Shown in pieces: positions 29,048-30,183 of a stretch of 64,000 nt of DNA. Under the pieces are notes generated by a model. That model was not told the origin of the DNA. It saw nothing but the letters and a program-made list of their open reading frames with translations, and did not search any database. The position numbers were made by a program, and so were the translations under genes. Numbering within the stretch: position 1 is the first letter of the stretch; every line of letters begins with the position of its first letter. Source of the stretch: Escherichia coli (GTDB lineage: Bacteria; Pseudomonadota; Gammaproteobacteria; Enterobacterales; Enterobacteriaceae); NCBI RefSeq assembly GCF_003334815.1, contig NZ_QOWO01000011.1; one strand, 5' to 3'.

Positions 29048-30183
29048 ATGAAGACGTTTCCTCTGCAAAGCCTGACGATTATTGAGGCGCAGCAAAAGCA
29101 GTTTGCGCTGGTGGATAGCATTTGTCGCCATTTCCCCGGCAGCGAGTTTCTTACTGGCGGTGATTTAGGCTTAACGCCAGGACTGAATCAACCGCGCGTT
29201 ACCCAGCGTGTGGAACAGGTGCTGGCTGATGCATTTCACGCACAGGCTGCGGCGCTGGTGCAGGGCGCGGGGACTGGCGCGATTCGCGCCGGGCTGGCGG
29301 CTTTGCTCAAACCGGGGCAGCGTCTTCTGGTGCATGACGCGCCTGTTTACCCGACGACACGGGTTATTATTGAGCAGATGGGGCTGACGCGCCTGTTTAC
29401 CCGACGACACGGGTTATTATTGAGCAGATGGGGCTGACGCTTATTACTGTTGATTTCAATGACCTGTCGGCACTGAAGCAGGTCGTCGACGAGCAACAAC
29501 CGGATGCGGCGCTGGTGCAGCATACGCGCCAGCAGCCGCAGGACAGCTACGTGCTGGCAGATGTGCTGGCAACGTTGCGCGCGGCAGGTGTTCCAGCGTT
29601 AACCGATGACAACTATGCGGTGATGAAGGTGGCTCGAATCGGCTGTGAATGCGGCGCGAATGTCTCGACATTTTCCTGCTTCAAGCTATTTGGGCCAGAG
29701 GGTGTTGGTGCAGTGGTCGGCGATGCTGATGTTATCAACCGTATTCGCGCCACGCTTTACTCCGGCGGTAGCCAGATCCAGGGCGCACAGGCGCTGGAAG
29801 TATTGCGTGGTCTGGTGTTTGCGCCAGTGATGCACGCGGTGCAGGCAGGGGTATCTGAACGGTTGCTGGCTTTGCTTAACGGTGGTGCGGTGCCGGAAGT
29901 GAAAAGCGCGGTGATTGCTAATGCGCAGTCGAAGGTGTTGATTGTCGAGTTTCATCAGCCGATTGCCGCCAGAGTGCTGGAAGAGGCGCAAAAGCGCGGT
30001 GCCTTGCCTTACCCGGTGGGTGCAGAGTCGAAATATGAAATCCCGCCGCTCTTTTATCGCCTTTCCGGAACGTTTCGCCAGGCGAATCCACAATCAGAAC
30101 ATTGTGCGATTCGCATTAACCCGAATCGCAGCGGTGAAGAGACGGTGCTGCGGATTTTGCGTGAGAGTATTGCCAGTATTTAA
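29048..30183 (+). pseudogene. yhfS: yhfS (predicted PLP-dependent enzyme) disrupted by a 50-bp tandem duplication; reads as two ORFs 29048..29437 and 29428..30183
   Basis: Copies at 29341-29390 and 29391-29440 are identical; the second copy shifts the frame and reaches TGA at 29435-29437; removing one copy gives a continuous 361-codon ORF (...VIIEQMGLTLITVDFNDL...). Confidence 0.85.
29341..29440 (+). repeat. Perfect 2 x 50 bp tandem direct duplication (unit gcctgtttacccgacgacacgggttattattgagcagatggggctgacgc)
   Basis: Read directly from sequence; 6-bp microhomology (tgacgc) at the upstream junction 29335-29340 and at unit end. Confidence 0.97.

Follow-up and report, generated by a model that had tools for sequence, protein, structure and literature searches.

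A 50-bp tandem duplication in yhfS of Escherichia coli as a probable, recent and strain-private case of microhomology-mediated mutation

Introduction

Mutagenesis by misalignment at short repeats is a classical subject in E. coli, where it is represented by the duplications and deletions of lacI between short homologies and by the RecA-independent rearrangement of tandem repeats. Another known system is formed by the phase-variable contingency loci, in which a change of repeat number toggles the reading frame, reversibly in principle; these are arrays of 1–7-nt units whose copy number varies among strains. The described mutations which come closest to the allele studied here are the microhomology-mediated tandem duplications (MTDs). 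According to Dan et al. (2021, PMC8639346), MTDs occur frequently, shift the reading frame, revert precisely and can be detected in E. coli, and duplication is in their report about 1,000 times likelier for long GC-rich pairs of microhomologies than for short AT-rich ones. In S. pombe they found a reversion of about 1e-4, compared with a forward frequency of 8e-7 (PMC8639346). A preprint (bioRxiv 10.64898/2026.02.28.708716) counts about 13,000 loci in E. coli with assembly-specific tandem duplications, named variable TD loci, and reports arms longer than 3 bp in about 50% of the variable TD loci across species, as against 1.6% expected.

In this work we have analysed a stretch of 64,000 nucleotides of E. 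coli DNA (hereafter the window), in which the gene yhfS carries a perfect tandem duplication of 50 bp. The allele resembles the MTDs in having a single-copy ancestor, a unit defined by the spacing of its arms, a perfect head-to-tail copy and n+1 arms. It is also coding, frameshifting and present in one assembly only, which is how the preprint defines a variable TD; we found no structural difference from this class, and the 6-bp arm of the window allele falls among those longer than 3 bp. With the classical misalignment events in E. coli it shares the organism, the same inferred misalignment of the polymerase or of sister strands, and an arm pair from which reciprocal products would arise, although the reciprocal 50-bp deletion of the yhfS unit was found in no complete genome. 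The contingency loci differ more: the yhfS unit is 50 bp long, and it is present once in each of the other genomes checked and twice here.

Results and Discussion

The original prediction was that two identical copies of a 50-mer lie at 29341–29390 and 29391–29440 of the window. Direct comparison of the sequence confirmed the identity, and TRF reported an array at 29335–29440 with a period of 50, 2.1 copies, 100% matches, no indels and a score of 212. A 50/50 match cannot have arisen by chance within 64 kb. Apart from this array the 50-mer does not occur again on either strand of the whole window, and the yhfS array is the only long-period tandem repeat found there. The period-50 identity begins at 29335 and thus precedes copy 1 by 6 bp, which leave the register ambiguous: copy 1 (29341–29390, + strand) can be read equally well as 29335–29384, and copy 2 (29391–29440, + strand), the unit inserted in comparison with the other E. 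coli checked, as 29385–29434. The 6 bp are the microhomology TGACGC, which had also been noticed at the junction before. It occurs three times on the + strand, at 29335–29340, where it belongs to the ancestral sequence, at 29385–29390, where it sits at the novel junction, and at 29435–29440, where its first three bases form the premature stop codon TGA (29435–29437). The novel junction itself, 29390/29391, reads GGGGCTGACGC followed directly by GCCTGTTT. The ancestral yhfS has two TGACGC arms, 50 bp apart from start to start, and the duplicated allele has three, so that the spacing of the arm pair equals the length of the unit and the product carries one extra arm. The arms are GC-rich (4/6 bases), and by our own arithmetic microhomology of 6 bp or more at a junction has a chance expectation of about 4^-6.

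How do other genomes look at this site? The yhfS region was matched in 5,066 of 5,426 complete E. coli genomes, and the best 40 of these matches all span 250 bp, not 300 bp, as two BLAST pieces. Two pieces spanning 250 bp are the signature of a single copy, and these 40 genomes are therefore single-copy and 50 bp shorter at the site than the window. The 25 kb around the site are about 100% identical to many phylogroup-A-like strains, among them 52F4, CFSAN061772, ZF34 and DH5alpha; those which are shown with two aligned pieces each span 24,950 bp compared with the 25 kb of the query. The closest complete relative, 52F4, was compared with the entire 64-kb window base by base, and the two differ by 10 SNPs and by one indel, which is the 50-bp duplication. 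The 52F4 allele has a single copy and two arms 50 bp apart. The duplicated segment is thus single-copy in the relatives and stands head to tail in the window. We also searched for the junction itself. A 44-nt junction query, built so that single-copy genomes fail the E-value limit, had no match among the 5,426 complete genomes of E. coli, and neither the GTDB species representatives nor the JGI metagenome contigs contained a 37-nt junction pattern. The 5,426 complete genomes also lacked the junction which a reciprocal 50-bp deletion would leave. At the protein level, an exact look-up found the intact 361-aa YhfS on at least 1,000 contigs, and the 129-aa product of the interrupted gene only once among about 15 billion proteins (CAM9201593.1, on contig CBDBYT010000010.1 of the assembly GCA_965212685.1). 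Positions 26048–32437 of the window are identical to this contig, which is 111,120 bp long and belongs to a draft assembly. A related genome with a two-copy form whose frame has been compensated was a possibility raised at the outset, and no other genome carried a two-copy form at all. We conclude that the ancestral state of yhfS is the single-copy one documented in thousands of genomes, and that the duplication is private to one assembly and recent, because its junction is absent from the other collections searched and its two copies show zero divergence.

The choice between a recent inactivating mutation and an assembly artefact, already recognized when the repeat was first noticed, proved to be the right one to consider, and the evidence favours a mutation. 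Could the isolate nevertheless have a single-copy yhfS, with a second copy that arose in assembly, polishing or library preparation, be it through the assembler, a chimeric template, gap closure or scaffolding? The duplicated allele was found in exactly one draft assembly (GCA_965212685.1) and nowhere else that was searched, and a perfect copy with zero divergence is also what an artefact would be expected to leave. Artefactual local duplications do occur in assemblies, and one of them affects the same part of this gene: at about nt 266 of yhfS (nt 1 being window position 29048), a metagenome scaffold has a 155-bp pseudo-insertion made of repeated yhfS sequence (...CATGACGCGCCTGTTTACCC...) with Ns in it. 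It is an artefact of scaffolding or of a gap and contrasts with the window duplication, which is free of Ns and lies in the middle of its 111-kb contig, with about 35 kb to the nearer end. A systematic assembly problem was also considered and rejected, since the rest of the 64 kb shows no other tandem duplication and no other indel against the complete genome of 52F4. Assemblers that work with k-mers cannot create a junction which is absent from the reads. Moreover, an artefact of the assembly graph would not be expected to hit a microhomology pair, because an arm of 6 bp is far below any assembler k-mer, whereas polymerase slippage would be expected to do so, and the whole repeat tract of 106 bp can be spanned by ordinary 150-bp reads. 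We therefore consider an artefact unlikely, and we are fairly confident that the duplication is a real mutation. It could still be subclonal in the sequenced culture.

Taken as a mutation, the allele is in our opinion probably a genuine, recent and strain-private MTD which has made yhfS a pseudogene. According to the model which we favour, the nascent 3' end would leave its template during replication just after the distal TGACGC had been copied, pair again, 50 nt further back, with the complement of the proximal TGACGC, and the 50 nt would then be synthesized again to give the tandem copy. Misalignment of sister strands or a template switch during the processing of Okazaki fragments would be equivalent routes. 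We infer slippage from its product, and an unequal exchange between sister strands would leave an indistinguishable outcome. The perfect 50-bp direct repeat would make a precise reversion to wild type possible through the same slippage, and from the work on MTDs such reversion is expected to be not only precise but also relatively frequent (PMC8639346).

Is there anything particular about this place in yhfS? A count of direct-repeat pairs of at least 6 bp within 200 bp gave 66 in the intact yhfS, so the TGACGC pair is not special and represents one substrate among many. DNA secondary structure was considered as a promoter of slippage and ruled out, for the local fold is not significant (z = -1.26) and only a 5-bp stem lies inside the unit; no significant inverted repeats were found around the duplication. 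As the local fold is not significant, nothing beyond the arm pair explains slippage at this site. Nor does the arm pair show any sign of being a recurrent hotspot, given that neither a recurrence nor the reciprocal deletion was seen in the 5,426 genomes.

We then asked what the duplication does to the protein. The disrupted yhfS occupies 29048–30183 on the + strand and is 1136 bp long here, compared with 1086 bp in other strains; the annotated yhfS of 52F4 aligns with it. Beyond codon 114 translation continues in a frame shifted by +2 and meets a stop 15 codons later, at TGA 29435–29437, and the ORF table accordingly holds two fragments where one gene is expected, just as had been predicted together with a restart at ATG 29428. 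The upstream ORF of 129 aa (29048–29437, + strand) consists of residues 1–114, 15 out-of-frame residues (RLFTRRHGLLLSRWG) and the stop, and the downstream ORF of 251 aa (29428–30183, + strand) corresponds to YhfS residues 111–361, its start being the codon of Met111 in copy 2. The two have been deposited as separate CDSs, CAM9201593.1 for the 129-aa product and CAM9201517.1. The expectation that removal of one copy would bring back a single ORF of 361 codons was borne out: deletion of one copy in silico gave a 361-aa ORF which is 100% identical over 361/361 residues to PDB 4J8L, entitled 'Uncharacterized protein YhfS'. Several short overlapping ORFs of 58–79 aa are also present in other frames, at 29208–29387 (+), 29171–29410 (-) and 29347–29523 (-), some of which share the out-of-frame peptide with the tail of the 129-aa product (...RLFTRRHGLLLSRWG). 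These ORFs are mechanical by-products of the repeat and not genes.

In the repaired protein, Pfam domains were found at residues 52–232 (Aminotran_1_2), 53–239 (Cys_Met_Meta_PP) and 255–354 (YhfS-like_C, PF22475, E = 1.4e-43). In an alignment with methionine gamma-lyase 1GC0, the 'SCFK' sequence of YhfS (S-x-x-K), which contains K196, corresponds to the PLP-lysine motif 'SATK', and the 'DDN' sequence, which contains D170, to the Asp motif 'DN'. The locus thus agrees with the YhfS family in sequence identity and in the presence of the YhfS-like_C domain, but its Gly-rich loop, Asp and PLP-lysine are not encoded by one uninterrupted ORF. The 129-aa fragment carries the Gly-rich cofactor loop GAGTGA (residues 73–78), and the 251-aa fragment carries D170, K196 as the PLP-lysine, and the YhfS-like_C domain. 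The frame break thus lies inside the fold-type-I PLP-binding domain. Because it separates the Gly-rich loop from D170 and K196 there, the enzyme is almost certainly inactive, the loss of function being deduced from the position of the break, and yhfS in this strain is most likely a pseudogene of the YhfS family and not a functional member of it. A minor observation on the family concerns the cluster of intact YhfS at 90% identity, which also lists 434-aa proteins named YhfT, the product of the neighbouring gene; this looks like an oddity of database clustering and not biology.

Is it possible that yhfS still works, either by ribosomal frameshifting across copy 2, which would insert 17 residues into an otherwise full-length protein, or through assembly of the 129-aa and 251-aa fragments into a two-piece enzyme? 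As +50 equals +2 modulo 3, rescue would take a shift of -1. The frame needed for this is open from 29374, and a -1 shift anywhere in 29374–29437 would lead back to the native one. However, neither X_XXY_YYZ heptamers, canonical or relaxed, nor homopolymers of six or more occur in this zone, which thus has no slippery sequence at which a programmed ribosomal frameshift or another recoding event could be placed. We also found no compensating second indel downstream of the duplication in the comparison with 52F4. For the two-piece enzyme it can be said that the fragments overlap by four native residues (111–114) and together hold every native residue. The premature stop comes 7 nt downstream of ATG 29428, and a geometry with a start codon just upstream of a stop allows coupling of termination and reinitiation. 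The 251-aa C-terminal fragment could perhaps be made in this way at a low level, although nothing better than a weak GAG stands in front of ATG 29428, at a distance of 3 nt. A break within the PLP-binding domain is a place where complementation between fragments would be unlikely, and no other genome keeps the two-fragment arrangement, either among the complete genomes or in the protein look-up. Residual activity of yhfS therefore seems to us the least probable of the readings considered, and we regard the gene as most likely inactivated.

The position of yhfS in its operon bears on the consequences of this loss. The gene is the last one of the yhfZ–yhfS operon; yhfT, which is intact, lies upstream of it in the operon at 27732–29036 (+ strand), and frlR, mapped onto the window at 30335–31066 (- strand), is convergent with yhfS. 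Since no gene on the same strand follows yhfS, the premature stop cannot exert a polar effect on other genes. The genome-reduced strain DGF-298, which is viable, lacks yhfY–yhfS (PMC10652928). Because yhfS ends its operon and the whole cluster is dispensable, we assume that the lesion is probably neutral. Beyond the DGF-298 deletion list, our literature search found nothing useful on the function or a phenotype of yhfS or the yhf operon in E. coli, and most of the matches concerned unrelated yhfS and yhfT genes of Bacillus and Staphylococcus.

The duplication is not the only lesion known in this gene. Other public assemblies hold at least 7 yhfS-disrupting alleles, all followed by the same 251-aa restart ORF. 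In the numbering in which nt 1 is window position 29048, these include 1-bp deletions of G at nt 216, 222, 267, 289 and 333, of which those at nt 216 and nt 333 were each seen in two sequences, a 2-bp deletion of GC at nt 230 in another assembly, and in a further assembly a probable stop-codon SNP, with no indel and a single SNP. These ordinary pseudogene alleles are like the window allele in the gene which they affect and in their outcome, an N-terminal fragment followed by an identical 251-aa ORF, but they are due to indels of 1–2 bp or to a point change, whereas the window allele is a tandem duplication. None of them shares the duplication junction, and we therefore regard them as independent events. 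Some of these lesions, which are losses of a single G, may be sequencing errors and not pseudogenes at all, at least where they fall in runs of G. A link between the other truncated alleles and the duplication was considered and dismissed, as the former are explained by deletions of 1–2 bp, a probable stop change, contig ends and scaffold gaps. A separate observation concerns an N-terminal YhfS fragment of 112 aa, equivalent to about 29048–29385 of the window, which is found on 211 contigs. In the examples read from metagenomes and from Logan, unbroken upstream sequence of 2.5 to 27 kb leads up to nt 338 of yhfS (...ATGGGGCT), where the contig simply ends, 2 nt inside the TGACGC arm. The same breakpoint in two assembly sources suggests a common polymorphism or structural variant that starts at nt 339.

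More far-reaching is the idea that the duplication is real but serves as a selected, reversible OFF switch, the loss of YhfS being adaptive in the niche of this strain. The perfect repeat would then let yhfS turn back on at a high frequency, comparable to the ssp1 MTDs of fission yeast, and it is true that in MTDs reversion is precise and far more frequent than formation (PMC8639346). The several unrelated yhfS-disrupting alleles described above would be compatible with recurrent loss. However, neither the duplicated allele nor the reciprocal deletion recurs in the 5,426 genomes, so that nothing points to a hotspot or to selection at this site; single-G losses, which in G-runs are possibly sequencing errors, make up many of the other lesions; no phenotype of yhfS was found in the literature; and neutral decay of a dispensable gene accounts for the same facts. 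Phase-variable loci of the known kind are recognizable by an array of short units which varies among strains, and yhfS has no such array, the two-copy and the zero-copy junctions both being absent from the 5,426 complete genomes. We consider a selected switch highly improbable, if slightly less so than residual activity of the enzyme. If it were true, this would be a natural isolate which uses an MTD as a temporary switch for the yhfZ–yhfS pathway beside the fructoselysine operon, and it would provide a handle on the cost or role of this pathway in the host.

Taken as a neutral MTD, the allele is an ordinary private case of a known class of mutation in a dispensable gene, and it tells nothing new about the function of YhfS or about mutation mechanisms. 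It has some practical meaning all the same. In annotation, yhfS of this strain should be flagged as a pseudogene or a possible error and not be given as two separate CDSs. The locus is also a clean textbook example of a natural MTD in E. coli, and it could be used as a strain marker or as a chromosomal reporter for the reversion of MTDs.

Short-period repeats were observed elsewhere in the window. An A-rich mini-repeat with a period of 12 bp (AAAAAATAAAAAC, 2.4 copies) is located at 38129–38158 in nirC, just upstream of nirD, according to the 52F4 annotation mapped onto the window. Another repeat with a 12-bp period (CACGATCACCAC, 2.4 copies) is found at 57086–57114 inside slyD, again by the mapped 52F4 annotation, in a region which we take to encode the His-rich C-terminal tail of SlyD. 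One of the SNPs between the window and 52F4, at 57127 (C in the window, G in 52F4), lies near this repeat and also within slyD.
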